Assembly: GCF_044647545.1 (NCBI RefSeq)
Contig: NZ_CP172818.1
Direction: 5' to 3' (one strand)
Source: Escherichia coli
GTDB taxonomy: Bacteria > Pseudomonadota > Gammaproteobacteria > Enterobacterales > Enterobacteriaceae
Length of the DNA: 64,000 bases
Shown here in pieces: positions 43,598 through 64,000 of the stretch. The notes beneath the pieces were generated by a model. It had not been told where the DNA came from and did no database searches. It saw only the letters and a program-made list of their open reading frames with translations. A program made the position numbers and the translations under genes. Numbering within the stretch: the stretch's first letter is position 1; every line of letters begins with the position of its first letter.

Positions 43598-43674
43598 GCG
43601 CCCTTAGCTCAGTTGGATAGAGCAACGACCTTCTAAGTCGTGGGCCGCAGGTTCGAATCCTGCAGGGCGCGCCA
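43598..43674 (+). tRNA. argU: tRNA-Arg (anticodon UCU)
   Basis: Cloverleaf GCGCCCTTAGCTCAGTTGGATAGAGC...GGTTCGAATCC...GCGCCA; anticodon loop CTTCTAA. Confidence 0.9.
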
Positions 43675-43689
43675 TTACAATTCAATCAG

Positions 43690-44853
43690 TTACGCCTTCT
43701 TTATATCCTCCATAATTCCAGAGTGGGACATATTTGGGACATTATCACCAAAAATGTCGTCTATTTTCCTCGCATGCTCTGTCAAATGATTAGGCGCAAG
43801 GTGAGCATACCTACGAACCATTTCTATGGACTCCCATCCGCCCATTTCCTGAAGCACTGATAATGGGACGCCTGACTGAATCAGCCAGCTTGCCCAGGTG
43901 TGTCTGAGGTCATGGAAACGGAAATCTTCAATTCCTGCACGACGACAAGCTGATAGCCATGATGTCTTGCTGTCGATGCGCATCTTCCTGACCGCAGGCG
44001 TTGATGTTCCATCTGCTCGCTTAGCCGCCTTGGTATGTACAAACACCCATTTGTGATGCTTGCCTATTTGATCACGCAACACTTTACAGGCGGTATCGTT
44101 CAGCGCCACACCAATGGCGCGGTTTGATTTGCTCTCTTCTGGATTCACCCAGGCAACTCGTCGCTGCATGTCGATTTGTTGCCATTCCAGATTTATGATG
44201 TTCGACTTTCTCAGACCAGTTGCCAGCGCAAACTTGACGACAGATTTCAGTGGTTCGGGGCACTCATCAATAAGGCGTTTTGCTTCCTCCTTTTCCAGCC
44301 ATCTGACTCGCTTGTTTCTGACCGCTGGTATCTTGATGACAGGCGCTTTTTCCAGCCACTTCCAGTCGCGTTCTGCAGCACGGAGAATGGCCTTTATCAT
44401 GGCAAGATGCTTTGCCTTTGTCTGAGTTGATACTGGCTTTGGTTCATAAACAGGCAGTTCTTTACCTTTCCTGATGGCGGCCTGAACTTTCTGTTTCCAT
44501 ATTTCTTTCGTCTTTCTGTTATGCATTCTGCTTACAGCAGAGTAAATCTTTGCCTCCGAGATATCTTTAAGCCTTATACCCTCAAAATGTTCAAGCCAGA
44601 ACTCAATCCGGCTTTTATCTGAATCGAGAGATTTTTTATCAGCTTTTTCCTCAAGCCATCTTAGGCAGGCCTCTTCAAAAGTGACATCAGGTAAATCCCC
44701 TAGCTTTTCTACTCGCCAGAGTTCTGCTTTTCGCTTGTCGTGCAACTCCTGAGCTTGCCGCTTGTCCTTTGTGCCAAGAGATTCCTTAATTCGTTTCCCG
44801 CCCGGGAGCGAATACGAGGCATACCATATTTCATTTCTGCGGAAGAGTGACAT
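43690..44853 (-). CDS. intD: Prophage tyrosine integrase
   Basis: 387 aa ORF with C-terminal HxxR...Y catalytic region, adjacent to tRNA. Confidence 0.9.
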
Positions 44854-44972
44854 TTTCTTTCCTCTGTTATGCCATCACCCGCGCTCACCTGGACAGTATG
44901 CAGCGGAGACTGAAGCGCCGCAATGCAGGCTTGCCGTGTTGTGAGGTACCCGGATATTATCGTGAGGATGCG

Positions 44973-45311
44973 TCATCGCCATTGCTCCCCAAATACAAAA
45001 CCAATTTCAGCCAGTGCCTCGTCCATTTTTTCGATGAACTCCGGCACCATCTCGTCAAAACTCGCCATGTACTTTTCATCCCGCTCAACCACGACATAAT
45101 GCAGTCCTTCACGCTTCATACGCGGGTCATAGTTGGCAAAGTACCAGGCATCTTTTCGTGTCACCCACATGCTGTACTGCACCTGGGCCATGTAAGCCGA
45201 CTTTATGGCCTCGAAACCACCGAGCCGGAACTTCATGAAATCCCGGGAGGTACGAGTATTGCCGGAAGCGCGGGCTGTATCCGGATGCAGAGTCTTATCC
45301 GTGGAAATCAA
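44973..45311 (-). pseudogene. exoD: Lambda exonuclease-like C-terminal fragment
   Basis: 112-codon ORF with exo-like C-terminus, no intact N-terminus. Confidence 0.55.
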
Positions 45312-45349
45312 ACGCGCACTACTGGCTGGTTACCAACCTGTATCAGAAC

Positions 45350-45562
45350 ATGCGGGCCAATGCGTTGACTGACGCGGAATTACGGCGCAAGGCTGCCGAT
45401 GAACTGTCCTGTATGACCGCACGAATTAACCGTGGTGAGGCTATACCTGAACCAGTAAAACAACTTCCTGTCATGGGCGGTAGACCTCTAAATCGTGCAC
45501 AGGCTCTGGCGAAGATCGCAGAAATCAAAGCTAAGTTTGGGCTGAAAGGAGCAAGGGTATGA
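45350..45562 (+). pseudogene. peaD: Replication protein P-like C-terminal fragment, stop overlapping ren start
   Basis: 70-codon ORF ending in ATGA overlap with ren, the lambda P-ren junction arrangement. Confidence 0.5.
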
Positions 45563-45707
45563 CGGGCAAAGAGGCAATTATTCATTACCTGGGGACTCAT
45601 AAGAAATTCTGTGCGCAGGACGTTGCCGCGGTAACAGGCGCAACGGTAATCTGATCTTACCCAGCAATAGTGGACACGCGGCTAAGTGAGTAAACTCTCA
45701 GTCAGAG

Positions 45708-46016
45708 GTGACTCACATGACAAAAACAGTATCAACCAGTAAAAAACCCCGTAAACAGCATTCGCCTGAATTTCGCAGTGAAGCCCTGAAGCTTGCTGAA
45801 CGCATCGGTGTTACTGCCGCAGCCCGTGAACTCAGCCTGTATGAATCACAACTCTACAACTGGCGCAGTAAACAGCAAAATCAGCAGACGTCTTCTGAAC
45901 GTGAACTGGAGATGTCTACCGAGATTGCACGTCTCAAACGCCAGCTGGCAGAACGGGATGAAGAGCTGGCTATCCTCCAAAAGGCCGCGACATACTTCGC
46001 GAAGCGCCTGAAATGA
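45708..46016 (+). CDS. insE: IS3 transposase OrfA
   Basis: 102 aa [35 protein letters not shown]. Confidence 0.9.
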
Positions 46017-46879
46017 AGTATGTCTTTATTGAAAAACATCAGGCTGAGTTCAGCATCAAAGCAATGTGCCGCGTGCTCCGGGTGGCCCGCAGCGGCTGGT
46101 ATACGTGGTGTCAGCGGCGGACAAGGATAAGCACGCGTCAGCAGTTCCGCCAACACTGCGACAGCGTTGTCCTCGCGGCTTTTACCCGGTCAAAACAGCG
46201 TTACGGTGCCCCACGCCTGACGGATGAACTGCGTGCTCAGGGTTACCCCTTTAACGTAAAAACCGTGGCGGCAAGCCTGCGCCGTCAGGGACTGAGGGCA
46301 AAGGCCTCCCGGAAGTTCAGCCCGGTCAGCTACCGCGCACACGGCCTGCCTGTGTCAGAAAATCTGTTGGAGCAGGATTTTTACGCCAGTGGCCCGAACC
46401 AGAAGTGGGCAGGAGACATCACGTACTTACGTACAGATGAAGGCTGGCTGTATCTGGCAGTGGTCATTGACCTGTGGTCACGTGCCGTTATTGGCTGGTC
46501 AATGTCGCCACGCATGACGGCGCAACTGGCCTGCGATGCCCTGCAGATGGCGCTGTGGCGGCGTAAGAGGCCCCGGAACGTTATCGTTCACACGGACCGT
46601 GGAGGCCAGTACTGTTCAGCAGATTATCAGGCGCAACTGAAGCGGCATAATCTGCGTGGAAGTATGAGCGCAAAAGGTTGCTGCTACGATAATGCCTGCG
46701 TGGAAAGCTTCTTTCATTCGCTGAAAGTGGAATGTATCCATGGAGAACACTTTATCAGCCGGGAAATAATGCGGGCAACGGTGTTTAATTATATCGAATG
46801 TGATTACAATCGGTGGCGGCGGCACAGTTGGTGTGGCGGCCTCAGTCCGGAACAATTTGAAAACAAGAACCTCGCTTAG
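46013..46879 (+). CDS. insF: IS3 transposase OrfB (DDE)
   Basis: 288 aa DDE integrase-core ORF in -1 frame relative to orfA. Confidence 0.9.
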
Positions 46880-47189
46880 GCCTGTGTCCATATTACGTGG
46901 GTAGGATCAACCAGCATAAATCAGGCTGCGGCTAAAATGGCACGGGCAGGTCTTCTGGCTATCGAAGGTAAGGTCTGGCGAACGGTGTATTACCGGTTTG
47001 CTACCAGAGAAGAACGGGAAGGAAAGGTGAGCACGAATCTGATTTTTAAGGAGTGTCGCCAGAGTGCCGCGATGAAACGGGTATTGAGGGTATATAAAAG
47101 AACATCAATGGGTACACAATGATGAAACAGGTGAGTTGAGTTCAAACTGTAGTACAATTCTCTCCAGTTTGAACAGGAAAGAATATTCT

Positions 47190-47522
47190 ATGAACCCTTA
47201 TATTTATCTTGGTGGTGCAATACTTGCAGAGGTCATTGGTACAACCTTAATGAAGTTTTCAGAAGGTTTTACACGGTTATGGCCATCTGTTGGTACAATT
47301 ATTTGTTATTGTGCATCATTCTGGTTATTAGCTCAGACGCTGGCTTATATTCCTACAGGGATTGCTTATGCTATCTGGTCAGGAGTCGGTATTGTCCTGA
47401 TTAGCTTACTGTCATGGGGACTTTTCGGCCAACGGCTGGACCTGCCAGCCATTATAGGCATGATGTTGATTTGTGCCGGTGTGTTGGTTATTAATTTATT
47501 GTCACGAAGCACACCACATTAA
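47190..47522 (+). CDS. emrE: Small multidrug resistance efflux protein EmrE
   Basis: 110 aa from MNPYIYLGGAILAEVIGTT with conserved membrane-embedded Glu14. Confidence 0.9.
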   Translation: MNPYIYLGGAILAEVIGTTLMKFSEGFTRLWPSVGTIICYCASFWLLAQTLAYIPTGIAYAIWSGVGIVLISLLSWGLFGQRLDLPAIIGMMLICAGVLVINLLSRSTPH

Positions 47523-47553
47523 AAATAATTTGTTTCTAAACGACTAAAATATG

Positions 47554-47587
47554 GAGGCTCTTATATTTATATGAGCCTCGTTTTATG
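47554..47587 (+). terminator. Rho-independent terminator after emrE
   Basis: GAGGCTC-12 nt loop-GAGCCTC followed by GTTTT. Confidence 0.5.
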
Positions 47588-47778
47588 CTTTTTGTTAATG
47601 TCTTTATTTTTTTATGTATTCTTTTGTGCTTTCAAGATTATGGCGTAAGAAAATTGCAATACGATTATTGTTGTATATTCAAGATAATGTGACCTTAATT
47701 GTCTTTTTAAATAAAAATTAAACAAAAATTATATCCCACCACTAAGGTTTATAAAAGCATACGTTAGCAGGTGTCACC

Positions 47779-49305
47779 ATGAAAAAAGCCATAGCATATA
47801 TGCGATTTTCATCACCAGGTCAGATGTCTGGCGACTCATTAAACCGACAGAGAAGACTTATTGCTGAATGGTTAAAGGTAAATAGTGATTATTATCTTGA
47901 TACCATAACATATGAAGATTTAGGATTAAGTGCATTCAAAGGAAAGCATGCACAATCAGGAGCTTTTTCGGAATTTTTAGATGCTATAGAGCATGGTTAT
48001 ATATTGCCAGGAACTACATTGTTAGTTGAAAGTCTGGACAGACTTTCAAGAGAAAAAGTCGGTGAAGCGATTGAACGTCTGAAATTGATTTTGAATCACG
48101 GTATTGATGTTATAACTCTTTGCGACAATACAGTCTATAATATTGACTCTTTGAATGAGCCATATTCATTAATAAAAGCCATACTTATAGCACAAAGGGC
48201 AAATGAAGAAAGCGAGATAAAGTCAAGTCGGGTTAAATTATCATGGAAGAAAAAACGGCAGGATGCACTGGAATCAGGTACGATTATGACGGCGTCTTGT
48301 CCGAGATGGCTCTCCTTAGATGACAAAAGAACGGCTTTTGTTCCAGACCCCGACAGGGTGAAAACTATTGAGCTAATTTTTAAACTCAGGATGGAAAGGC
48401 GCTCATTGAATGCAATAGCCAAGTATTTAAATGATCATGCTGTAAAGAATTTCTCAGGAAAAGAAAGTGCATGGGGACCTTCTGTAATTGAAAAATTATT
48501 AGCGAATAAAGCTCTGATAGGTATATGCGTACCTTCATATCGTGCAAGAGGTAAAGGAATAAGTGAAATCGCTGGCTATTATCCCAGAGTCATATCAGAT
48601 GATTTGTTTTACGCTGTACAGGAAATTCGGTTGGCACCTTTTGGTATTAGCAATAGTAGCAAAAATCCTATGTTGATAAATCTACTTCGAACAGTTATGA
48701 AGTGCGAGGCTTGTGGTAATACCATGATTGTTCATGCGGTATCTGGAAGTTTGCATGGCTATTATGTTTGTCCGATGAGAAGACTGCATCGATGTGACAG
48801 GCCATCAATAAAGAGAGATTTGGTTGATTATAATATCATTAATGAGTTGCTTTTTAATTGTAGTAAAATCCAACCAGTTGAAAACAAGAAAGATGCTAAT
48901 GAAACTTTAGAGTTGAAAATTATTGAGCTCCAGATGAAAATTAATAATTTAATTGCTGCATTATCTGTTGCGCCTGAAGTTACCGCTATAGCAGAAAAAA
49001 TCAGAGTATTAGATAAGGAATTACGAAGGGCTTCTGTATCATTAAAAACTTTGAAGAGTAAAGCGGTGAGTTCACTTGGTGATTTTCATGCTATTGACTT
49101 AACCAGTAAAAATGGGCGAGAGCTATGTCGTACACTTGCCTATAAAACATTCGAAAAAATCATAATCAATACAGATAATAAAACCTGTGATATCTATTTT
49201 ATGAATGGCATTGTTTTTAAACACTATCCTTTAATGAAAACAATATCCGCCCAGCAGGCGATAAGTACTCTCAAATATATGGTTGATGGTGAGGTTTATT
49301 TTTGA
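47779..49305 (+). CDS. ybcK: Large serine recombinase-like protein
   Basis: N-terminal resolvase catalytic domain (AYMRFSSPGQ), recombinase domain and Cys-rich zinc ribbon. Confidence 0.85.
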   Translation: MKKAIAYMRFSSPGQMSGDSLNRQRRLIAEWLKVNSDYYLDTITYEDLGLSAFKGKHAQSGAFSEFLDAIEHGYILPGTTLLVESLDRLSREKVGEAIERLKLILNHGIDVITLCDNTVYNIDSLNEPYSLIKAILIAQRANEESEIKSSRVKLSWKKKRQDALESGTIMTASCPRWLSLDDKRTAFVPDPDRVKTIELIFKLRMERRSLNAIAKYLNDHAVKNFSGKESAWGPSVIEKLLANKALIGICVPSYRARGKGISEIAGYYPRVISDDLFYAVQEIRLAPFGISNSSKNPMLINLLRTVMKCEACGNTMIVHAVSGSLHGYYVCPMRRLHRCDRPSIKRDLVDYNIINELLFNCSKIQPVENKKDANETLELKIIELQMKINNLIAALSVAPEVTAIAEKIRVLDKELRRASVSLKTLKSKAVSSLGDFHAIDLTSKNGRELCRTLAYKTFEKIIINTDNKTCDIYFMNGIVFKHYPLMKTISAQQAISTLKYMVDGEVYF

Positions 49306-49500
49306 GTAATAATCTTTTTTACGTCGTGCTATAGTAAGAAAGTGCAAGACAGAATTAATTATCTTTGACGAAACTTAATGGGTAATTACTTTGTTTGCTC
49401 CCACAAGCGAGTTTTGTACGGCTGTATTGGGGTAGTAAATGAGCTATACAATCTTAATCATTTGTTAGGTGAGAACTCTTGGTCGCAGATTCAAATACTG

Positions 49501-49550
49501 AAAATACGTGACAAATTATTATGAGCAAAATGGTGTATGTCACGTATTTT
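49501..49550. repeat. Perfect 13-bp inverted repeat (AAAATACGTGACA / TGTCACGTATTTT) with 24-bp spacer
   Basis: Read directly in ybcK-ybcL intergenic region. Confidence 0.6.
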
Positions 49551-49762
49551 GAATGGTAGGTTAAAAAATAACACCGACTTTCGTAGGTATTACTAATAAT
49601 AAAGCAGAGTTTTTAGATAGTATCAATGTGCTTTGTGTATATTGTGGCAAATAATTGGGTTGCTGAGGGGTAGAATGTGATTGCTTTTGCATGAACACTT
49701 TATGCATAATGAGATAAAGGAATATCAAATAAAGAACGATAGGTCATAACAAAGAGGTTTTT

Positions 49763-50312
49763 ATGAAAACACTTATCGTTTCAACTGTATTGGCATTCAT
49801 AACATTTTCTGCGCAGGCTGCAGCATTTCAGGTCACTAGTAATGAAATAAAAACAGGAGAGCAACTTACAACGTCTCATGTCTTTCTCGATTTGGGTGTG
49901 AAGGTGGTAATACATCGCCCTCATTAACCTGGTCTGGTGTTCCTGAAGGTACCAAAAGCTTTGCCGTAACTGTATATGATCCAGATGCACCTACAGGCAG
50001 TGGTTGGTGGCATTGGACTGTTGTTAATATTCCAGCAACAGTAACATATTTTCCGTTGATGCAGGGAGACGTGATGGAACAAAACTGCCGACTGGTGCTG
50101 TTCAAGGCCGAAATGATTTTGGCTATGCTGGGTTTGGTGGCGCATGTCCTCCTAAAGGAGATAAACCACATCATTACCAGTTTAAAGTATGGGCTCTAAA
50201 AACTGAAAAGATTCCTGTAGATTCTAACTCCAGCGGAGCGTTAGTTGGTTATATGCTTAATGCTAATAAAATCGCAACCGCTGAGATAACACCAGTTTAT
50301 GAGATAAAGTAG
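49763..50312 (+). pseudogene. ybcL: PEBP/RKIP-family periplasmic protein gene disrupted by two single-base frameshifts
   Basis: Signal peptide frame stops after 54 codons; [13 protein letters not shown] segment in -1 frame; [10 protein letters not shown] segment in a further -1 frame; total 550 bp. Confidence 0.75.
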
Positions 50313-50321
50313 GGTGAGAGT

Positions 50322-51119
50322 ATGCTGGCAAGAGGTAAGACTAACTTAAAGATCGAAGAAATACGGATGCATAAACATCATGAGATTCATAGGGTTAAGC
50401 CTCTTATGCCAGCTTTGTGTCGTATCCGTCAGGGAAAGAAAGTTATCAATTGGGAGACGCATACTTTAACTGTTGATAATAATCAAATAATATTATTTCC
50501 TTGTGGTTATGAATTTTATATTGAGAATTATCCTGAAGCAGGGCTTTATCTTGCAGAAATGCTTTACTTACCCATTGATTTAATTGAGAGTTTCCAAAAA
50601 CTTTATACGGTAACTGATCAAATACGTAACAAAACAAGTTTCTTTTTACCTCAGAATCCTGAGTTAATATATTGTTGGGAGCAACTAAAAACATCTGTTT
50701 CCCGAGGCTTCTCAACTAAAATTCAGGAGCACTTAGCAATGGGCGTTCTACTTTCGTTAGGAGTGAATCATGTTAATCATTTACTTTTATCATATAGTAA
50801 ACAATCATTGATAAGTCGTTGTTATAACCTGCTGCTATCCGAACCCGGCACAAAATGGACAGCAAACAAGGTTGCTCGATATCTCTACATTTCTGTTTCT
50901 ACATTACATCGCCGTCTAGCAAGCGAGGGGGTAAGTTTCCAAAGTATACTGGACGATGTGAGGTTAAATAATGCGTTGTCTGCTATACAAACGACGGTAA
51001 AACCTATAAGCGAGATTGCCAGAGAAAATGGTTATAAGTGTCCTTCTCGTTTTACTGAAAGATTTCATAATCGTTTTAATATAACACCAAGAGAGATAAG
51101 AAAAGCTTCCAGAGAGTAA
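50322..51119 (+). CDS. ybcM: AraC-family transcriptional regulator
   Basis: C-terminal AraC HTH ([26 protein letters not shown]). Confidence 0.8.
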
Positions 51120-51333
51120 AAGTGTTTTAAGAAGGAGCAATTCTATCGATTTTGATTTGCGATAATCAACTCGCCATAATCATGTCATCGGAGCCTGAAC
51201 AACTCCGGTGACTTCTGCGCTAAACGGGGACGTTTATGCGCACACACAATCCAAACTCTCTTCTCCCTCCACAGATGCAGAAATGCACCTGCGATATATT
51301 GTATCCAGCGTTTGACCTCTGCGGAGGTGAAGC

Positions 51334-51789
51334 GTGAATCTCCCACAAGATGGCATCAAATTACATCGCGGTAACTTCACCGCTATCGGTCGGCAGATCC
51401 AGCCTTATCTGGAGGAGGGCAAATGCTTTCGCATGGTGCTTAAACCGTGGCGTGAGAAACGCAGTCTTTCCCAGAATGCACTCAGCCACATGTGGTACAG
51501 CGAAATCAGTGAATACCTCATCAGCAGGGGTAAAACGTTCGCTACTCCAGCTTGGGTAAAAGATGCTCTCAAACACACATATCTCGGTTATGAAACCAAA
51601 GACCTGGTTGATGTCGTAACCGGTGATATCACCACTATCCAGTCGTTACGCCATACCTCCGATCTTGATACCGGAGAGATGTATGTCTTCCTGTGTAAGG
51701 TTGAAGCCTGGGCGGTGAATATTGGCTGCCACCTGACTATTCCGCAGAGCTGCGAGTTCCAGCTGCTCCGCGACAAGCAGGAGGCGTAA
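51334..51789 (+). CDS. ybcN: Prophage protein YbcN
   Basis: 151 aa ORF at head of nin-like gene block. Confidence 0.75.
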
Positions 51790-51959
51790 TGGCTACACCG
51801 CTTATTCGTGTCATGAACGGACACATCTACAGAGTACCAGATCGTCGTAAGCGTAAACCGGAGCTGAAGCCTTCCGAAATACCAACACTGCTCGGATATA
51901 CCGCCAGCCTGGTTGATAAAAAATGGTTGCGACTGGCAGCAAGGAGGAATCATGGCTGA
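51789..51959 (+). CDS. ninE: NinE-like protein
   Basis: 56 aa [21 protein letters not shown]..., start overlaps ybcN stop. Confidence 0.7.
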   Translation: MATPLIRVMNGHIYRVPDRRKRKPELKPSEIPTLLGYTASLVDKKWLRLAARRNHG

Positions 51960-52242
51960 TTTGAGAAAAGCAGCGCGTAGTCGGGAATGCCAGGTAAGAA
52001 TCCCTGGCGTATGTAATGGCAACCCTGAAACGTCTGTACTGGCACATATCCGGCTGACTGGATTGTGCGGCACCGGTACCAAACCGCCAGACCTGATTGC
52101 CACCATTGCATGTTCTGCCTGCCACGACGAAATCGACCGCCGCACACATTTTGTCGATGCTGCATATGCAAAAGAATGCGCGCTGGAAGGTATGGCGAGA
52201 ACACAGGTTATCTGGCTGAAAGAGGGGGTTATTAAGGCGTGA
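51952..52242 (+). CDS. ybcO: Prophage protein YbcO
   Basis: 96 aa Cys-rich ORF overlapping ninE end. Confidence 0.75.
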
Positions 52243-52601
52243 ATACCTACAGCATCACATTACCCTGGCCTCCGAGCAATAATCGCTATTACCGCCATAA
52301 TCGCGGGCGCACGCACGTCAGCGCAGAGGGGCAGGCATACCGCGATAACGTCGCCCGAATCATTAAAAACGCAATGCTGGATATCGGCCTGGCTATGCCT
52401 GTGAAAATCCGCATTGAGTGCCACATGCCGGATCGCCGTCGCCGTGACCTGGATAATCTGCAAAAAGCCGCTTTTGACGCACTCACTAAAGCAGGTTTCT
52501 GGCTGGATGATGCTCAGGTCGTTGATTACCGCGTTGTGAAGATGCCTGTTACCAAAGGTGGGAGGCTGGAACTGACCATCACCGAAATGGGGAATGAATG
52601 A
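52239..52601 (+). CDS. rusA: Holliday junction resolvase RusA
   Basis: 120 aa ORF with RusA catalytic Asp cluster. Confidence 0.9.
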
Positions 52602-52738
52602 TGTTTGAGTTTTATATGGCAGAACGTCTTCGCCACCGCTGGGGGCGTCTGCGCTTATATCGTTTCCCCGGTTCTGTTTTGACCGATTACCGAATACTGA
52701 AGAATTACGCCAAAACCCTGACAGGAGCAGGAGTATGA
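52598..52738 (+). CDS. ylcG: Small prophage protein YlcG
   Basis: 46 aa ORF with start overlapping rusA stop. Confidence 0.55.
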
Positions 52739-52823
52739 AGTCAGAGATAACAATCAACTAATACTGTTTCGTTGATTTTTGCTTGTAATTGGCGTTCTGG
52801 TCTGATTTTTGTGGAGTAAGTTG

Positions 52824-53207
52824 ATGCGTGATATTCAGATGGTTCTTGAGCGTTGGGGAGCGTGGGCGGCTAATAATCATGAAGATGTGACCTGGTCGTC
52901 CATTGCCGCCGGTTTTAAGGGATTAATTACTTCAAAAGTAAAATCTCGCCCACAATGTTGTGACGATGACGCGATGATCATTTGCGGGTGCATGGCCCGT
53001 CTGAAAAAGAACAACAGCGATTTGCATGATTTATTGGTGGACTATTATGTCGGCGGCATGACTTTTATGGCGCTTGCACGTAAGCATGGGCGATCTGATT
53101 GTTGGGTTGGCAGGATGCTTCAGAAAGCTGAGGGCGTAGTGGAGGGTATGCTGATGGTGTTGGATCTCCGATTGGAGATGGATGTCGTTGTTAATAACTC
53201 TAATTAA
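52824..53207 (+). CDS. quuD: Lambda Q-like late antiterminator
   Basis: 127 aa from [14 protein letters not shown] with Cys-rich zinc motif. Confidence 0.85.
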
Positions 53208-53458
53208 TATGCCAATTGTTTACTAAAAATTATTAAAAATGGGGCGTTGAGACGCCCCCAAAAATAAAGGGTAATATATAACAGAAGGTTTATATAGTTA
53301 GAAGCAAGGTTGTGCTTCTAAAGGAAGTGGCTTGAGGGAGCCACTTATATGTTGGGGAGGCAACGCCTCCCGCAACATATCTTTTTCGTAATCAGATTAG
53401 AACTGGTAAACCAGACCTACAGCAACGATGTCATCAGTGCTTACACCGAGTGCTTTAG

Positions 53459-54653
<1,195 letters not shown>

Positions 54654-56110
54654 TTAGTGAAGTCATTTTTGTCAAGCAGGTTGATTTTGTAATCAACGAA
54701 AGTAGACATATTTTTGTTGAAGTAATAGGTTGCACCTACATCAACATATTTGACTAAGTCCTGATCGCCCCATACTCCAAGATCCTTACCTTTAGATTGC
54801 AGGTAAGCAACGGACGGACGCAGACCGAAATCGAACTGATATTGTGCAACAGCTTCGAAGTTTTGGGCTTTATTAGCAACGAAGTGATCAGCAAATACAG
54901 TCATATTCTGGGTTTCAGAATAGGTAGTGGCCAGGTAAATGTTGTTAGCGTCATATTTCAGACCTGCGGCCCAAACTTCTGCATTTTTACCGGAAGCAAA
55001 TACTTCAGGAAGAACTTTCCCTGCATTAACTTGAGTGTCGGTACGATCAGATTTCGCATAAGTTGCACCGATACCGAATCCTTCGTATTCATAGGTAGCA
55101 GAGAAACCGAAGCCATCACCGTTACCTTCAGTGTAGTTATCGAAATCGCTACGATCGTTTTTGCCTTGGTACTGAATCGCAAAATCAAGACCATCAACCA
55201 GGCCAAGAAATCATAGTTACGGTAGGTTGCAACACCGTTGGTACGACCATTCATGAAGTTGTCAGCGGAAGCCCAGGAATCGCCACCCCATTCAACTAAC
55301 ATATCGGTATAAGCTGCGGCATCATAAGCAACACCGTAGTTACGGCCATAGTCAAATGACCACTCGTTATATTTCAAACCGGCGAAGGTTAAACGGGTTT
55401 TTTCCTGGTTTTCACCTTCGGGCTTGCTGGCGTCGAGGTTGTATTCAAACTGACCAAAACCAGTCAGTTCGCTGGTGATTTGGGTTTCACCTTTGAAGCC
55501 AAGACGGGCATAAGTAGTATCACCATCATCTGCATCATTAGAGGAGAAGTAGTGCTTAGCATTAACTTTCCCGTACAGATCCAGCTTGTTACTGTCTTTA
55601 TTATAAATTTCAGCTGCCTGAGCAGACATCGCCATTAGTACTGATGCAGCTACAGCAGAAATTGCCACTGTTAATTTTTTCATCGTGAGCCCTTTTTTTG
55701 AACTATTATTAAAAAATGATGTCACTGCGCGATAAATATTCATCTAATCAATGTGATTATTTCAAGATGTAAGTTTTGGTTTCTCGTTTGATTTGTGAAG
55801 TAGATCTCTATTTTTATCTGAACTTTTTTCTATCGAATCCTATTCATGGCTCTTGGCTGAATAAAAATAAATCTATTAGCCAATTTATATTAACGGCTGT
55901 TATTTATAAGTGCTCTATAATTTGAAGGTTCAATTTAAACCGGCTAAAAATAACACTGGAAATTATTTTTTGGTTATTTGTTGAGATTTGCTTATGTATT
56001 TGTAGTGGTGTTTTCAATACTCGGTAGCATTCTCTCAAATATCATTTAGTGGTTTACGTACGTAAAAAATTGGTTATGCTGTTAAGAGTGGTTACTTCGT
56101 CACACAGCTT

Positions 56111-56140
56111 AAACCCGCCGTCGAGCGGGTTTTTCCATTT
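56111..56140 (+). terminator. tR-prime-like terminator upstream of holin gene
   Basis: AAACCCGC-CGTCGA-GCGGGTTT followed by T run. Confidence 0.5.
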
Positions 56141-56258
56141 TTTGAGTCTCGATATTAGCTGATAACCCAATACCTGAGTTATTCACTGACTCCGAGTCTG
56201 TTACGTTTCGTAGTATTCCCTCAATTTACACCCATCCGTTATTTGCGGAGGTGAGGCT

Positions 56259-56474
56259 ATGAAATCCATGGATAAGTTAACAACGGGCATTGCCTACGGC
56301 ACCTCCGCAGGCAGTGCTGGCTACTGGTTTTTACAGCTGCTCGATAAAGTCACGCCCTCACAGTGGGCAGCAATAGGTGTGCTGGGTAGCTTGGTATTTG
56401 GCCTGCTGACGTACCTGACAAACCTTTATTTCAAGATTAAAGAAGATAAGCGCAAGGCTGCGAGAGGTGAATAA
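56259..56474 (+). CDS. essD: Class I holin (lambda S-like)
   Basis: 71 aa small TM protein heading the lysis cassette. Confidence 0.9.
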
Positions 56475-56971
56475 TGCCTCCATCATTACGAAAAGCCGTT
56501 GCTGCTGCTATTGGTGGCGGAGCAATTGCTATAGCATCAGTGTTAATCACTGGCCCAAGTGGTAACGATGGTCTGGAAGGTGTCAGCTACATACCATACA
56601 AAGATATCGTTGGCGTATGGACTGTATGTCACGGGCATACAGGAAAAGACATCATTCCCGGTAAAACGTATACCGAAGCAGAATGCAAAGCCCTCCTGAA
56701 TAAAGACCTTGCCACGGTAGCCAGACAAATTAACCCGTACATCAAAGTCGATATACCGGAAACAACGCGCGGCGCTCTTTACTCGTTCGTCTATAACGTG
56801 GGCGCAGGCAATTTCAGAACATCTACTCTTCTTCGCAAAATAAACCAGGGCGATATCAAGGGCGCATGTGACCAGCTACGTCGCTGGGCATACGCTGGCG
56901 GTAAGCAATGGAAAGGCCTGATGACTCGTCGTGAGATTGAGCGTGAGGTCTGTTTGTGGGGGCAACAATGA
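56474..56971 (+). CDS. rrrD: Phage lysozyme (T4 e-like endolysin)
   Basis: 165 aa ORF with glycoside hydrolase 24 catalytic E...D...T region. Confidence 0.9.
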
Positions 56972-57342
56972 GCAGAGTCACCGCGATTATCTCCGCTCTG
57001 GTTATCTGCATCATCGTCTGCCTGTCATGGGCTGTTAATCATTACCGTGATAACGCCATCGCCTACAAAGAACAGCGCGATAAAAAAGTCAGTGAGCTGA
57101 AGCAGGCGACCGCCACCATTACTGACATGCAGCAGCGCCAGCGTGATGCTGATGCACTCGATGCTAAATACACGAAGGAGTTAGCTGATGCGAAAGCTGA
57201 AAATGATGCTCTTCGGCGCAAGCTTGATAATGGTGGTCGGGTGCTCGTCAAAGGAAAATGCCCTGTGCCATCCTCAGCCGAAACCTCCAGCGCCTCCGGC
57301 ATGGGCAATGATGCCACCGTCGAACTCAAAGACCGAGAATAA
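56968..57342 (+). CDS. rzpD: Rz-like spanin (i-spanin), apparently truncated by frameshift
   Basis: [32 protein letters not shown]-terminus as in lambda Rz; frame stops after 124 codons. Confidence 0.7.
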
Positions 57343-57445
57343 AAACTATCCAGTTAGCGACGAATATCTGGACCCAATTATCGCGACCAAAACAGCACTG
57401 AGAACGCTTCAGGAATTCATCAGGACGCAATGTCCTTCGAGATAG
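57188..57445 (+). CDS. rzoD: Rz1-like o-spanin lipoprotein frame with abnormal 3-prime extension past the Rz stop
   Basis: Embedded +1 frame with lipobox MVVGC and Pro-rich segment; tail resembles Rz C-terminus. Confidence 0.5.
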
Positions 57446-57601
57446 CGATTATTTTACTCATCATTCCCTTCACATCTGGCTCTGTAGACAGTTCACTTCT
57501 GAAATCCAATAAACATCTCATTCTGATGCTTGATATTGAGCATTTTGCGCGCGGTAAGGGGCTGCGTTGAGATAAGAACCAGTAAAAATAAACCAGGATT
57601 T

Positions 57602-57663
57602 AGCCTCGCATTCGCGGGGCTTTTTATTGCCATTACAAAAGCCACTTCCTACAGAGTGGCTTT
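57602..57663. terminator. Back-to-back hairpins (bidirectional terminator) after lysis cassette
   Basis: GCCTCGC..GCGGGGCTTTTT and AAAAGCCACT-8 nt-AGTGGCTTT. Confidence 0.45.
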
Positions 57664-57919
57664 GATAATGGTTTATACCCTACACGGGATAACTTAACTG
57701 ATATCCCTTTTAAAGGATAAAGGTATTCAAGCCTGACACATCATGCGCTGTATCGTCGCCGTATTCCCGTATTAACAGAGACCGTAGCCCGACGGGGAAC
57801 TCCTTCTGCGCGAGTGTGCGGGAATAATCAAAAACGATGCACACCGGGGTTACCGGGTACACATATTTCATCATGCCAGCGAGTCCGGTTCTGGCACGGA
57901 AGAAACCGGACGTTATGAT

Positions 57920-58330
57920 TTAGTGCGGAAATATTTGTGTAGTGTTCTGAATGTTCTCAGTAAAGAGTAATGAATTATCAAAGGTATAGTAATACCTTTT
58001 GTTTTCGTGGATATTTGTAATCCATCTGAAAACCCCTGCTGTAGCAAGATTTTTCCTGTATTCGTAAAATGATAACTCTCCTGATTTGAATCCTTTTAAG
58101 GTGGCTTCTATAAGGCATTTATTTTTTGAAAATCTTACATTTACAACCTTACCCTGTCCTTTTATTAAAACCGTATTATCGTTTTCAAGAACAAGATGAA
58201 TATTCTCTGTAGCTAAATAGTAAATGTAATGTGAGACATTGTGACGTTTTAGTTCAGAATAAAACCAGTGATAGTTTAAATTATTTCGCACTTTATCGAA
58301 TATTTGTTTAAAAATGGCAACCTGAGCCAT
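57920..58330 (-). CDS. ybcV: DUF1398-family prophage protein
   Basis: [21 protein letters not shown]... Confidence 0.75.
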
Positions 58331-58662
58331 TGTGGTACCTTCCATGTGATATGAGGGGCGTAGTCTGCACGATTATCTAAATTGCTTCAATCTGGTCTGA
58401 TTTTTGAGAATTTAAATAAGCAGATTAGAAGGGAAACGCTGAAATTCATGTTGTTTTCAATAAACAAAGAATGGACGAAAAATCATAAAGACAATACTGC
58501 CAGGACAGGTTAAAAACTATCTTAATACACATTCGATGGTTAGATGTTTAATCATGTATAGAACATCATACCTAAAATACTAAAAGCAAAAGAAACGAAG
58601 GAATCCTCTATAATTAATCTATCAAAGAAGAGAATACGTATCTGACTAAGAGACTAATCAAC

Positions 58663-58896
58663 TCAGCAATCCTCGTATTTAGGGAATACAATACGTCCAG
58701 TGTCACTCTTTTCTTTGTTTGCTTCAGGAGAAACTCTTTTTTCTGAGCACAGTCTCCGGCGGCAGGCTTCAATGACCCAGGCTGAGAAATTCCCGGACCC
58801 TTTTTGATCAAGAGCGATGTTAATTTGTTCAATCATTTGGTTAGGAAAGCGGATGTTGCGGATTGTTGTTCTGCGGGTTCTGTTCTTCGTTGACAT
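58663..58896 (-). CDS. ylcI: DUF3950-family small protein
   Basis: ORF MSTKNRTRRTTIRNIRFPNQMIEQINIALDQKGSGNFSAWVIEACRRR. Confidence 0.65.
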   Translation of the reverse strand: MSTKNRTRRTTIRNIRFPNQMIEQINIALDQKGSGNFSAWVIEACRRRLCSEKRVSPEANKEKSDTGRIVFPKYEDC

Positions 58897-59079
58897 GAGG
58901 TTGTCCCGTATTTAGTGTCGCTGATTTGTATTGTCTGAAGTTGTTTTTACGTTAAGTTGATGCAGATCAATTAATATGATACCTGCGTCATAATTGATTA
59001 TTTGACGTGGTTTGATGGCGTAGATGCACGTTGTGACATGCAGATGATAATTATTATCATTTTGCGGGTCCTTTCCGGC

Positions 59080-59284
59080 GATCCGACAGGTTACGGGGCG
59101 GCGACCTCGCGGGTTTTCGCTATTTATGAAAAATTTCCGGTTTAAGGCGTTTCCGTTCTTCTTCGTCATAACTTAATGTTTTTATTTAAAATACCCTCTG
59201 AAAAGAAAGGAAACGACAGGTGCTGAAAGCGAGCTTTTTGGCCTCTGTCGTTTCCTTTCTCTGTTTTTGTCCGTGGAATGAACA
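59080..59284 (+). other. Lambda-type cos region: cosN (GGGCGGCGACCT at 59096-59107) and cosB upstream of Nu1
   Basis: Sequence matches remembered lambda left-end and right-end junction ...CGACAGGTTACG|GGGCGGCGACCTCGCGGGTTTTCGCTATTTATGAAAA. Confidence 0.8.
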
Positions 59285-59830
59285 ATGGAAGTCAACAAAA
59301 AGCAGCTGGCTGACATTTTCGGTGCGAGTATCCGTACCATTCAGAACTGGCAGGAACAGGGAATGCCCGTTCTGCGAGGCGGTGGCAAGGGTAATGAGGT
59401 GCTTTATGACTCTGCCGCCGTCATAAAATGGTATGCCGAAAGGGATGCTGAAATTGAGAACGAAAAGCTGCGCCGGGAGGTTGAAGAACTGCGGCAGGCC
59501 AGCGAGGCAGATCTCCAGCCAGGAACTATTGAGTACGAACGCCATCGACTTACGCGTGCGCAGGCCGACGCACAGGAACTGAAGAATGCCAGAGACTCCG
59601 CTGAAGTGGTGGAAACCGCATTCTGTACTTTCGTGTTGTCGCGGATCGCAGGTGAAATTGCCAGTATTCTCGACGGGCTCCCCCTGTCGGTGCAGCGGCG
59701 TTTTCCGGAACTGGAAAACCGACATGTTGATTTCCTGAAACGGGATATTATCAAAGCCATGAACAAAGCAGCCGCGCTGGATGAACTGATACCGGGGTTG
59801 CTGAGTGAATATATCGAACAGTCAGGTTAA
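59285..59830 (+). CDS. nohD: Terminase small subunit (Nu1 homolog)
   Basis: 181 aa [39 protein letters not shown], matching remembered lambda Nu1. Confidence 0.9.
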
Positions 59831-60548
59831 CAGGCTGCGGCATTTTGTCCGCGCCGGGCTTCGCTCACTGTTCAGGCCGGAGCCACAGACCGCCGTTGAA
59901 TGGGCGGATGCTAATTACTATCTCCCGAAAGAATCCGCATACCAGGAAGGGCGCTGGGAAACACTGCCCTTTCAGCGGGCCATCATGAATGCGATGGGCA
60001 GCGACTACATCCGTGAGGTGAATGTGGTGAAGTCTGCCCGTGTCGGTTATTCCAAAATGCTGCTGGGTGTTTATGCCTACTTTATAGAGCATAAGCAGCG
60101 CAACACCCTTATTCCAGCTGGCTTCGTGGCTGTTTTCAACAGTGATGAGTCATCGTGGCATCTCGTTGAAGATCATCGGGGTAAAACGGTTTATGACGTA
60201 GCGTCAGGGGACGCGTTATTTATTTCTGAACTCGGTCCGTTACCGGAAAATGTTACCTGGTTATCGCCGGAAGGGGAGTTTCAGAAGTGGAACGGTACAG
60301 CCTGGGTGAAAGATGCAGAAGCAGAAAAACTGTTCCGGATTCGGGAGGCGGAAGAAACAAAAAACAGCCTGATGCAGGTAGCCAGTGAGCATATTGCGCC
60401 ACTTCAGGATGCTGTAGATCTGGAAATCGCAACGGAGGAAGAAACCTCATTGCTGGAAGCCTGGAAAAAATATCGGGTGTTGCTGAACCGTGTTGATACA
60501 TCAACTGCACCTGATATTGAGTGGCCTACGAACCCTGTCAGGGAGTAA
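59805..60548 (+). pseudogene. aaaD: Fusion of terminase large subunit N-terminus (lambda A) to tail fiber assembly C-terminus
   Basis: [19 protein letters not shown]... (A N-term) switches near 60110 to Tfa-like sequence ending [17 protein letters not shown]... Confidence 0.75.
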
Positions 60549-60602
60549 TCATTGGGATTATGCCGCAGCACGTCTTAAGCAAGAACATGCTGCGGTTGGA
60601 TG

Positions 60603-61187
60603 CTATTTTTTTCCTGAAGCGGAAAACATTACTACAGTACCTTGAACCTTGGTTTTAACATTCTCGAAATGCTCTGAGAGTATATGTGTTAAGCCTTCTT
60701 CGGAATCTTTTGTGTTTGAAAAGATGCCTTTCTGATTGTAAATGCGCATCAGTTTTTGACCGAAGCTATTGTGCACAACTCCATCGCCAAGAATTGTGGC
60801 TCCGTATAGAGTTCCATCGTCAGTTAAGGCCTGCGCCGCATTGCGTATTACACAGCTTTTTGTAGATATATTTCCAGGCAGGCAGTGAAGAAGGTAAGAC
60901 ATGGAAATGGAATCAAATTGACCATGTAACGCCGCGGGATAAGGTTCAAAAACATCATGGCTAATTTTATGTTTAATTTTTGATTCCCCAGCCCTTGTAG
61001 ATGCCGCGTTCAGGCTAGCTTCGTTCAAATCCATTAAAGATATCAGACTACTCTCAGGTACGTGAGTAAGGTAAAACCCAGTTCCAACACCAATATCCAG
61101 ATGGTTGTTACCTAAATGTTCCAGAAAGTGTGGAAGAAGGTGTTCCTTTGTAGGACATCCCCATGCAAGCCGATTTGATACTCCCAA
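60603..61187 (-). CDS. ybcY: SAM-dependent methyltransferase-like protein (possibly truncated)
   Basis: ORF with methyltransferase motif LDIGVGTGF. Confidence 0.7.
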   Translation of the reverse strand: MGVSNRLAWGCPTKEHLLPHFLEHLGNNHLDIGVGTGFYLTHVPESSLISLMDLNEASLNAASTRAGESKIKHKISHDVFEPYPAALHGQFDSISMSYLLHCLPGNISTKSCVIRNAAQALTDDGTLYGATILGDGVVHNSFGQKLMRIYNQKGIFSNTKDSEEGLTHILSEHFENVKTKVQGTVVMFSASGKK

Positions 61188-61325
61188 AACCCACCAGTCA
61201 TAAAGCTTTAGGGTAAGTGGTGTGTAAATTCTAGCCCCATCATCTGTGTTTTTTTATTAATTTCACCATGTTATAGTTTTATTTGTGAATTAAATCAATT
61301 ATGGCAATGAATTACAAGGGGTTAA

Positions 61326-61586
61326 ATGCTGCCGCAGCATAGCGATATTGAAATAGCCTGGTATGCTTCAATACAGCAGGAGCCGAATGGCTGGAAGACC
61401 GTCACCACACAGTTCTACATCCAGGAATTCAGTGAGTATATTGCGCCACTGCAGGATGCTGTAGATCTGGAAATCGCAACGGAGGAAGAAAACTCGTTGC
61501 TGGAAGCCTGGAAAAAGTATCGGGTGCTGCTAAACCGTGTGGACACTTCCGTAGCACCAGATATCGAGTGGCTTATTCAACCATAA
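61326..61586 (+). pseudogene. tfaX: Tail fiber assembly protein C-terminal fragment
   Basis: 86-codon ORF whose C-terminal ~50 residues repeat the aaaD tail. Confidence 0.7.
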
Positions 61587-62131
61587 TAAACAGTATGTAT
61601 ATCATAGGTTATTAATTGTGAGTTTTTTCGGTGTGTTATTTGTTTGTTTGATGTTATGCTTTTGCGCCCCAAAAGGTTGTTTAGATGTATTTTATCAATT
61701 GATTTTCAATGTCGTTTAATAAAGAAAAATTAAGCAAGCTGGATGTTGGTTTTTTGTTAATTGAATGGTTCTAATAATGTTTTTTTACTGTTGTTGAATG
61801 TGACTTGATAAGAAATGCAAGTAAAAATGATACTCTTTTTATTTTAAATTCAAACGGTTGACATATATATAGCAAGAGGTTTCAGGTGCGTTGTAGTGAG
61901 TTTATGTTAATAAAAAGTATAGTAAGCGTTGAAAAATGTAACTTTGAAATACGTTAGAATAAAAAACAATATACATATAATAATTTAATCTTAAATGAAA
62001 TTTATTAAAATTTGCAAACTATAATTTTGTGTATAAAAATATAAATGCACATCATCCTGATTATGATTGTGTATTTAATTGGTTGTTATTTGACTGCTAT
62101 CAACTTGTTTTAATTTTATGATAGGTGCAAG

Positions 62132-62881
62132 ATGGATTATGTTTGCTCCGTAGTTTTCATCTGTCAATCATTTGATTTAATTATAAACAGGAGAGTTATC
62201 TCGTTCAAAAAAAATTCATTGTTTATTGTAAGCGACAAAATTAGAAGGGAGTTACCAGTATGCCCCTCTAAACTAAGAATTGTTGATATAGATAAGAAAA
62301 CATGTTTATCCTTTTTTATCGACGTGAATAATGAGCTGCCTGGCAAATTTACTCTTGATAAGAATGGCTATATTGCTGAAGAGGAACCTCCATTATCGCT
62401 TGTTTTTTCTCTGTTTGAAGGGATTAAAATAGCAGACTCACACTCCCTTTGGTTAAAAGAAAGACTATGTATATCCTTACTTGCCATGTTCAAAAAACGC
62501 GAAAGTGTAAATTCATTTATACTAACAAATATAAATACATTTACCTGTAAAATTACTGGAATAATCAGTTTTAATATTGAGCGGCAATGGCATTTAAAAG
62601 ATATTGCGGAATTGATTTATACGAGTGAAAGTTTAATAAAAAAAAGATTAAGGGATGAAGGAACGTCATTTACTGAAATATTGAGAGATACTAGGATGAG
62701 GTATGCAAAAAAACTCATAACTTCAAACTCTTATTCTATCAATGTCGTAGCCCAGAAATGTGGCTATAACAGTACTTCATATTTCATATGTGCATTTAAA
62801 GATTATTATGGTGTCACGCCATCTCATTATTTTGAGAAAATAATCGGCGTCACAGATGGAATAAACAAAACAATTGACTGA
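62132..62881 (+). CDS. appY: AraC-family regulator AppY
   Basis: 249 aa ORF with C-terminal AraC HTH, AT-rich codon usage. Confidence 0.9.
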
Positions 62882-63129
62882 TAATGTTTATTACAAGTTG
62901 CCTACATGTTAATTATAATATTATACAGCGTTTTTTTGATGTGATATTCTGGAACCATTAATTTGTAATTGGGTTGCTGTCGCCTATTTTATACATGCTA
63001 TAATTGATGGTTTTCTATGTGATTTAGTTAATAACCTTCTGGGTTTATTTTAAGGGTTAATTGTTACATTGAAATGGCTAGTTATTCCCCGGGGCGATTG
63101 TCACCTCGGGGAAATTTTAGTTGGCGTTC

Positions 63130-64000
63130 TTAAAATGTGTACTTAAGACCAGCAGTAGTGATGAAGTTATAGTTTTCTATGCCTGCACCATTTTTGCTGT
63201 AGTCTGAAGTGTTATCATTGTGATCATAAAGTGAAGTATTACCTTTTTTATTCGTAACCCGATTCCATGCGCCTTCAACATAAACTTTTGCGTTAGGTGT
63301 TACGTAATAACCTGCATTGACTGCAACAGAATAGTAATTTTGGTCTTTGACTTTACTGCGATAAGTGATTCTTTTTCCTGGGTCATAGTGCTCATCGTTA
63401 TCAGATGCTTCCACCCAGCCGCTGTATTTAAATGTGCCACCTAGCTCAAAATCTTCATAACGATAACTTCCAGTCAAGCCAATGTAGGGCATTTTAAAAC
63501 GTTGTTTGTAGCCGATTGCTCTTTCTCCATTCGGGAAGGAGCCGATATCATCTCTGAATCCCTCCTCAGAACTGTAGATATAGGAACCACCTCTGGCTGT
63601 AAAGCTATAACGGCTTTCCTGATATCCGGCCATGAGTCCCAGGCGGTAATTGGGTTCGTTGAGGAGCCAGCCTTTGATATTCAGATCAAATTCGTTGGCA
63701 TAATTGAGTTGTGTATCAGGGTGCCTACTTTCATCTGTCCAGGTTCCGGGGTTACTGGAATCCATCCAGTCCTGATCGACCATATTGCCACCTCGGCTGC
63801 CGAGAGTAGTCCAGCCCGCAGCCCCAATAGATATCTGGGGCATCAAATCCCAATTAATTGCACCTTTAATAATTGCAGCGTTATTGAATTTCCAGTCGAG
63901 TTGACTGACTTTTCGGCCTCCTTCTTCGGCTAGATAAACACGCTCTTTTGTTTTTCCGCTCAGAGTTCCAAGACTAATGTCCGCATTTATGTTGTCAGGA
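63130..64000 (-). CDS. ompT: Outer membrane protease OmpT (omptin), 3-prime portion; 5-prime end beyond window
   Basis: C-terminus ...YNFITTAGLKYTF and omptin beta-barrel sequence; frame open to window end. Confidence 0.9.
   Translation of the reverse strand, partial: PDNINADISLGTLSGKTKERVYLAEEGGRKVSQLDWKFNNAAIIKGAINWDLMPQISIGAAGWTTLGSRGGNMVDQDWMDSSNPGTWTDESRHPDTQLNYANEFDLNIKGWLLNEPNYRLGLMAGYQESRYSFTARGGSYIYSSEEGFRDDIGSFPNGERAIGYKQRFKMPYIGLTGSYRYEDFELGGTFKYSGWVEASDNDEHYDPGKRITYRSKVKDQNYYSVAVNAGYYVTPNAKVYVEGAWNRVTNKKGNTSLYDHNDNTSDYSKNGAGIENYNFITTAGLKYTF

Follow-up and report, generated by a model that had tools for sequence, protein, structure and literature searches.

Why should a cryptic prophage that can no longer build a phage particle keep a packaging site that looks ready for use? 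This question is raised by a 64-kb stretch of an Escherichia coli chromosome (hereafter the window), in which an earlier note, made from the letters of the sequence, had recognized a lambda-type cos site beside a broken terminase gene and had proposed that a superinfecting lambdoid phage could package the prophage in trans. Our analysis points to a different role for the site. We consider it highly probable that a complete lambda-like cos and nu1 have survived at the edge of a deletion in a DLP12-type prophage, that they can be used by the terminase of a helper phage, and that cos owes its intact state to functional phages, whose alleles either were its recent ancestors or have overwritten it repeatedly. 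Selection for a packaging function of the prophage is not needed to account for it.

The locus begins at 43.6 kb and is a cryptic lambdoid prophage of the DLP12 type, integrated at argU. Its left part runs argU, intD, IS3, ybcK through quuD, nmpC::IS5 and essD/rrrD/Rz, and its right part runs cos, nohD, A'-tfa, ybcY, tfaX, appY and ompT (Table 1). The prophage measures ~21 kb, of which ~15.5 kb lie to the left of cos; head and tail genes are missing, and the replication genes are present only as fragments (partial P, ren), judged by collinearity with the K-12 annotation. DLP12 of K-12 (qsr'; MG1655 cosN at 580,645) occupies the same argU-intD site and agrees with it in gene order, in the IS3 and IS5 insertions, in the junction between A codon 103 and tfa, and in the downstream genes ybcY, tfaX, appY and ompT. 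The window prophage is nevertheless a DLP12 variant in another lineage, not a K-12 copy. Its identity to K-12 DLP12 is 97.1% over 44000-57212 and 98.9% over 58734-64000, with clustered mismatches, and the interval 57212-58734 is replaced relative to K-12.

Table 1. Features of the prophage and its cos region, in window coordinates.
Feature	Position	Strand	Basis and remarks
argU, tRNA-Arg(TCT), left boundary/attachment site	43598..43674	+	ARAGORN; collinear with K-12 annotation
intD, apparently intact integrase, 387 aa	43690-44853	-	ORF list
YlcI/YnfO-like small ORF (DUF3950), left of cos	58663..58896	-	Pfam PF13132, E=5.8e-21; K-12 ylcI annotation
Lambda-homologous cos patch (right end + left end)	58701..60112	+	stops exactly at A'-tfa deletion junction
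FNR box, perfect, TTAAGTTGATGCAGATCAATTAAT	58952..58975	+	exact match to K-12 FNR target; ~120 bp left of cosN
cosQ (GGGTCCT), packaging-termination subsite	59066..59072	+	equals lambda 48473-48479; lambda spacing kept
cosN cohesive-end sequence GGGCGGCGACCT	59096..59107	+	exact match; functional cosN is ~22 bp around it
I2 bent spacer (lambda bp 18-50)	59113..59145	+	alignment; one substitution, T38A
cosB	59148..59263	+	pattern scan; equals lambda save for absent reference G138
R3	59148-59162	+	R-type repeat, pattern scan
I1 (IHF site), between R3 and R2	~59160-59185		equals lambda
R2, inverted	59201-59215	-	R-type repeat, pattern scan
R1, direct like R3	59249-59263	+	R-type repeat, pattern scan
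nohD / nu1, small terminase subunit, 181 aa	59285..59830	+	Pfam Phage_Nu1 full-length, E=2.5e-100
A'-tfa fusion ORF (K-12: aaaD-tfaD)	59805..60548	+	overlaps nu1 ORF; junction 60112|60113

The cos site is complete in every defined part. The cohesive-end sequence GGGCGGCGACCT proved to be exact and present as a single copy in the window; the chance expectation is ~0.008 exact copies (128,000 positions / 4^12), and shuffled sequence gives a mean of 0.29 copies with at most one mismatch. In the alignment, the flanks of cosN are those of lambda from lambda 48487 through lambda bp 37. The cosQ subsite falls just outside the range that the earlier note had covered (59080-59284), and its exact lambda coordinates are reportedly those of Wieczorek & Feiss (2001). 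Three substitutions relative to lambda occur in the 36 bp left of cosN, none of them within cosQ, whose GGGTCC is kept in all full-length left-flank alleles among IMG/VR contigs with the same cos. The role of cosQ in packaging termination has been described (PMC4669245), and our subsite definitions are those of the Feiss laboratory (PMC4669245, PMC4856287, PMC9026076). To the right of cosN, the critical bp 30-35 of I2 (TATGAA, 59125-59130) are intact, the spacing from cosN to R3 is as in lambda, and the window is identical to lambda from bp 39 to 137. Three R matches were found in the cosB region, compared to a shuffle mean of 0.08. In all, cosQ, cosN, the I2 core, R3, I1, R2 and R1 are identical to those of lambda, and the alignment to lambda, which had been named as the observation that could overturn the reading of an intact site, revealed no substitution in cosN, cosQ or any R site. 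A scan for promoters and terminators around cos gave nothing beyond chance.

The remaining structural claims about the site held as well. Lambda right-end sequence precedes cosN (58734-59095 aligns with lambda 48141-48502, with 21 differences), cosB with its three R repeats and an intact Nu1 homolog follow it, and the large terminase gene is truncated and fused to tfa. The sequence from 59096 to 60112 aligns with lambda left end 1-1018, and 58734-60112 as a whole differs from the joined lambda ends at 25 of 1,379 bp (98.2% identity). Window Nu1 matches lambda Nu1 at 181/181 amino acids, with two synonymous nucleotide differences. The A'-tfa ORF encodes gpA residues 1-103 followed in frame by a Caudo_TAP (tail fibre assembly) domain (E=4.8e-45), and a 51-mer across its junction matches 360 of 5,426 complete E. 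coli genomes, which with few exceptions derive from K-12. The FNR box TTAAGTTGATGCAGATCAATTAAT belongs to the conserved lambda right-end sequence.

The same alleles are found in phages and prophages that retain their head genes. Positions 59060-59284 are 100% identical to the cos of the isolated phage Chlobot (PP925838), and 58701-60112 are 100% identical to a prophage of E. coli MS6198; the patch is 99.5% identical to Chlobot and 99.4% identical to the related E. coli draft SCPM-O-B-8794. Beyond this region, unlike in the window, Chlobot and the MS6198 prophage have a full-length gene for the terminase large subunit, then W, portal and head genes, and the MS6198 prophage goes on into full-length A, W, portal and protease genes. 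The cos sites of Chlobot, MS6198 and the isolated phage mEp332 are presumed functional because they belong to isolated phages or complete prophages. In both its left 40 bp and its right 119 bp, the window segment is the commonest allele of the IMG/VR contigs compared, carried by 40 and 22 contigs, respectively. The MG1655 copy is further from lambda than the window cos: it has C53T at the R3 edge, A73G, T85A and T102C in cos and R70L, A75T and L132I in NohD, and the window has none of these. Because every subsite is that of functional alleles, the window cos should be cuttable, and we infer from these sequence comparisons that it is a competent substrate for a terminase of lambda specificity. 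That specificity is to be expected since all subsites and their spacing match lambda and Nu1 is 100% identical. The window site also differs from that of the phage in its setting, as a single copy in the chromosome, without a functional gpA and without proheads.

What could a helper phage do with such a site? In lambda, TerS binds cosB, IHF bends I1 and TerL nicks cosN, and terminase then keeps the cosB-bearing end and translocates that DNA into the prohead (PMC4669245, PMC9026076, PMC6687093). Packaging ends only at a downstream cosQ-cosN, so that a second cos is needed (PMC6687093, PMC4669245, PMC9026076), and packaging of the cos type calls for a pair of sites separated by about one genome length (PMC6687093). 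In the window, an internal deletion has fused A codon 103 to part of a tfa gene, with the loss of every head and tail gene, so that the prophage is unable to package itself. A helper terminase of lambda specificity would bind cosB, with IHF at I1, and nick the cosN of Table 1. Packaging would then proceed rightward through nohD, A'-tfa, ybcY, appY and ompT and on into the chromosome. One predicted outcome is that the double-strand break, together with the patch of homology, would favor recombination in which the prophage and passing phages trade cos/nu1 alleles. The other, at most, would be one-sided packaging of the chromosome to the right, from which the packaging rules of lambda predict no infectious particles because rightward packaging would be unable to terminate without a second cos. 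No second cos was found in the 4.9 kb of the window to the right of cosN. The earlier proposal of packaging the prophage in trans does not survive this geometry well: a second cos would be needed, and trans packaging is unlikely because packaging leads out of the prophage, away from the portion to the left of cos. Cosmid-style rescue is also unlikely, given the single cos, the size of the prophage and the P/ren fragments.

The nearest precedent for such one-sided packaging is the lambda docL particle, which Sternberg & Weisberg reportedly described in 1975 as the product of in situ packaging from the cos of an unexcised prophage. As is predicted for the window site, docL packaging starts from one cos in the chromosome and runs in a single direction into the neighboring host DNA. 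Particles of the docL type require nuclease trimming before tailing, and packaging from the window cos would yield, at most, docL-like filled heads with protruding DNA. Kotani et al. are said to have found in 1992 that lambda terminase cuts the E. coli chromosome at the cos sites of cryptic prophages, and the name noh (Nu1 homologue) reportedly goes back to the same work.

Recombination at this patch has been observed in K-12. De Paepe et al. (PMC3945230) describe a 3,353-bp patch in K-12 DLP12 that is 98% identical to lambda and spans cos, and report that lambda acquires markers from DLP12 ~100-fold more often than from Rac or Qin. Among the right-hand recombinant junctions given there, 10 of 19 adjoin cos and 3 of 19 lie to the right of cos, and all tested hybrid phages were viable, including carriers of DLP12 nu1. 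Excision of three K-12 prophages, including DLP12, was checked by PCR in the same study. Red-mediated cointegrates also arise at the DLP12 cos patch (PMC545071). In these studies, recombination between DLP12 and lambda around cos has been demonstrated in K-12, whereas cutting of the DLP12 cos is only proposed (PMC3945230, PMC545071).

Variation among related prophages is consistent with continued exchange of this kind. We compared five loci that share an identical deletion junction, namely those of the window, MG1655, PD007, AG100 and HS-01, and counted differences within the patch (58734-60112) and within the 2.3 kb of its right flank (60113-62400), with significance given as Fisher p. Among the near-isogenic, K-12-like MG1655, PD007 and AG100, differences lie almost wholly inside the patch: MG1655 differs from PD007 at 6/1379 positions in the patch and 0/2288 in the flank (p=2.8e-3), and from AG100 at 8/1379 and 1/2288 (p=2.4e-3). 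For MG1655 and HS-01 the counts are 29/1379 and 0/2288 (p=4e-13), and for the window and MG1655 they are 31/1379 and 8/2288 (p=1e-7). The patch of the window is the allele of an intact prophage (100%) right up to the junction. The simplest reading of these counts is that, after the deletion, the patch has probably been replaced repeatedly through recombination with functional lambdoid phages. Alternatively, the concentration of variation in the patch could in part be ancestral polymorphism among independently acquired copies of DLP12, although the common A'-tfa deletion junction speaks against this. Extending repeated replacement to traffic in both directions, with the DLP12-type cos-nu1 patch overwritten by circulating lambdoid phages and donated to them in an exchange stimulated by terminase cutting, is a tentative step, to which we give somewhat less than an even chance.

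The site does differ from the lambda record in a few places. Between cosN and the nu1 start codon, the sole real difference is T38A (59133), in I2, which the earlier note did not mention. It had instead listed small differences in the cosB region, including a weakened hairpin, GAGC-TTTTT-GGCCTC. This segment is present, and polymorphic, between R2 and R1, but it is no divergence from lambda and the hairpin is spurious. The G at lambda bp 138 (window position ~59232) is present only in the 1982 reference J02459/NC_001416, and its absence elsewhere is presumably the '138delG' listed among discrepancies between laboratory lambda DNA and the reference record. G138 is absent from the re-sequenced lambda genomes PV340536 and KT232076, from lambda DE3, from all DLP12 copies including that of MG1655, from Chlobot and mEp332, and from all IMG/VR contigs compared. 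Aligning to the reference lambda record thus yields a spurious 1-bp "deletion" along with the spurious hairpin. Predicted folding of the R2-R1 hairpin gives -10 kcal/mol for the lambda reference, -4.6 kcal/mol for the window, and -1.5 and -7 kcal/mol for two other natural variants. We rejected the hairpin as a functional element: it is strong in J02459/NC_001416 only, and natural alleles vary freely in this segment, which is the most polymorphic part of cos among them. T38A, for its part, occurs in nature as a minority allele. With T38A at its center, a 51-mer searched by megablast such that the variant must be present to seed a match hits 186 of 5,426 complete E. coli genomes and two isolated phages, Chlobot and mEp332, and 3 of the 82 IMG/VR contigs compared carry the variant.

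These differences could be taken to mean that the site is a dead relic, no longer recognized or cleaved because of T38A or of the G that is lacking between R2 and R1. I2 is essential, scrambling of bp 18-50 being lethal (PMC4856287), and the drop in predicted hairpin stability from the lambda reference to the window points the same way. However, among the blocks of I2 bp 30-35 alone are individually essential (Oh et al., PMC4856287), and these are intact in the window; replacement of bp 18-29, 36-41 or 42-47 gives plaque-forming phages whose yield is not much reduced (PMC4856287), and T38A falls in the replaceable bp 36-41 block. On this ground, and with the allele present in isolated phages, T38A was rejected as an inactivating change. 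The absence of G138 from so many phage sequences, the high polymorphism of the R2-R1 segment in natural alleles, and the merely accessory role of R1 (PMC4669245) also argue against a dead site, which we regard as very improbable. A shade less probable still is that the region is kept for the host, with NohD/A'-Tfa acting under FNR control as a regulator, or as a decoy against the terminase of incoming phages. In support of this, the Nu1 ORF has no amino acid change relative to lambda, and the fusion retains the N-terminus of gpA, which in lambda terminase contacts Nu1. The perfect FNR box, moreover, is that of an FNR target upstream of nohB and nohA in K-12, for which binding was seen in vivo by ChIP-chip and in vitro by EMSA (PMC1802558). 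Yet the nohA/B fragment showed little promoter activity, on which fnr had no effect (PMC1802558), and both the FNR box and Nu1 are identical in functional phages, so that their conservation is explained by the phage context. Lambda grows on DLP12-carrying K-12 and hybrids with DLP12 nu1 are viable (PMC3945230), and the three substitutions in MG1655 NohD look like drift rather than constraint.

As improbable as a host function is that cos has been kept by a helper-dependent "hitcher" or satellite life, in which the prophage, on infection by a helper, would excise, use its own cos to enter the capsids of that helper, and be transferred. An intact cos and terS do stand beside an apparently intact intD, but packaging from the integrated site heads away from the prophage, of whose replication genes, as K-12 collinearity indicates, only fragments are left. 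Excision of DLP12 in K-12, when De Paepe et al. checked it by PCR, is said to have given a negative result. DLP12 and other defective prophages have been put forward as candidate proto-hitchers (PMC11389934), but a prophage of this size with a single cos lacks the second site that is needed (PMC6687093). Gram-negative PICIs of the EcCICFT073 type are likewise chromosomal, carry a lambda-like cosQ and cosN, and need a helper terminase; their cos, in contrast, lacks the lambda R sites, Rpp redirects TerL, and they excise and replicate (PMC9026076). In the window, cosB is purely lambda-like and no replication gene is more than a fragment; on this anatomy, satellite or PICI identity was rejected. 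Our preferred explanation remains a lambda-like cos and nu1 that survive at the deletion edge, either recently descended from phage alleles or refreshed by them.

Several observations concern the surroundings of the site. Although the DLP12 architecture is that of K-12, the chromosome around it is divergent: core genes left of the prophage (all, gcl, pur, cysS, folD, sfm) show only 96.5-98% identity with their K-12 counterparts, and rhsD is absent within the window; no exact match to the window was found among complete RefSeq E. coli genomes. From Rz to ylcI (57212-58400), the sequence is replaced relative to K-12 and is without bor and ybcW, and the DUF1398 (ybcV-like) gene at 57920-58345 is ~83% identical to K-12 and 97-98% identical to MS6198 and Chlobot. 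Between this gene and the ylcI/ynfO-like gene lies an AT-rich (32% GC) segment of ~298 bp (58401-58700), which encodes the last ~12 codons of the YlcI-like ORF and stands where MS6198 and SCPM-O-B-8794 have 23 bp. Neither megablast nor blastn matched this segment to any of 5,426 complete E. coli genomes, a search of 50,697 phage records was equally negative, and IMG/VR contains no exact 34-mer from it; terminal inverted repeats were not found. On the other side of cos, the tfaD-like and tfaX-like fragments at 60383-60525 and 61430-61572 form a direct repeat of ~88% identity, ~1 kb apart, which flanks the frameshifted methyltransferase gene ybcY on the opposite strand. Outside E. coli, an exact 70-bp lambda string covering cosN-I2-R3 occurs in the assembly of Alicyclobacillus fastidiosus plasmid unnamed3 and in contigs of Raphidiopsis brookii D9 and Aeromicrobium sp. 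The string is surrounded by ~400 bp of 96% lambda-like sequence in these unrelated assemblies, and its presence there is most likely contamination with lambda or cosmid-vector DNA.

The DLP12 cos, nohD and aaaD/tfaD are already known, having been annotated in K-12 and used experimentally (PMC3945230, PMC545071). The restriction of variation to the patch adds only a mildly new angle, in that it suggests ongoing exchange of cos alleles, and the impact on the field is small. As a cheap signature, patch-concentrated variation could be used across many genomes to follow allele traffic between phages and defective prophages. A single chromosomal cos is unable to rescue its prophage, and what a helper phage could realistically bring about there is cutting at cos and recombination. 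If the DLP12-type patch is indeed both overwritten by and donated to circulating phages, a perfect cos amid the decay of the remaining prophage would be explained, and a side effect would be one-sided packaging of the ompT-envY flank at each helper infection. The dead prophage would then be a continually refreshed store of live packaging-site alleles.
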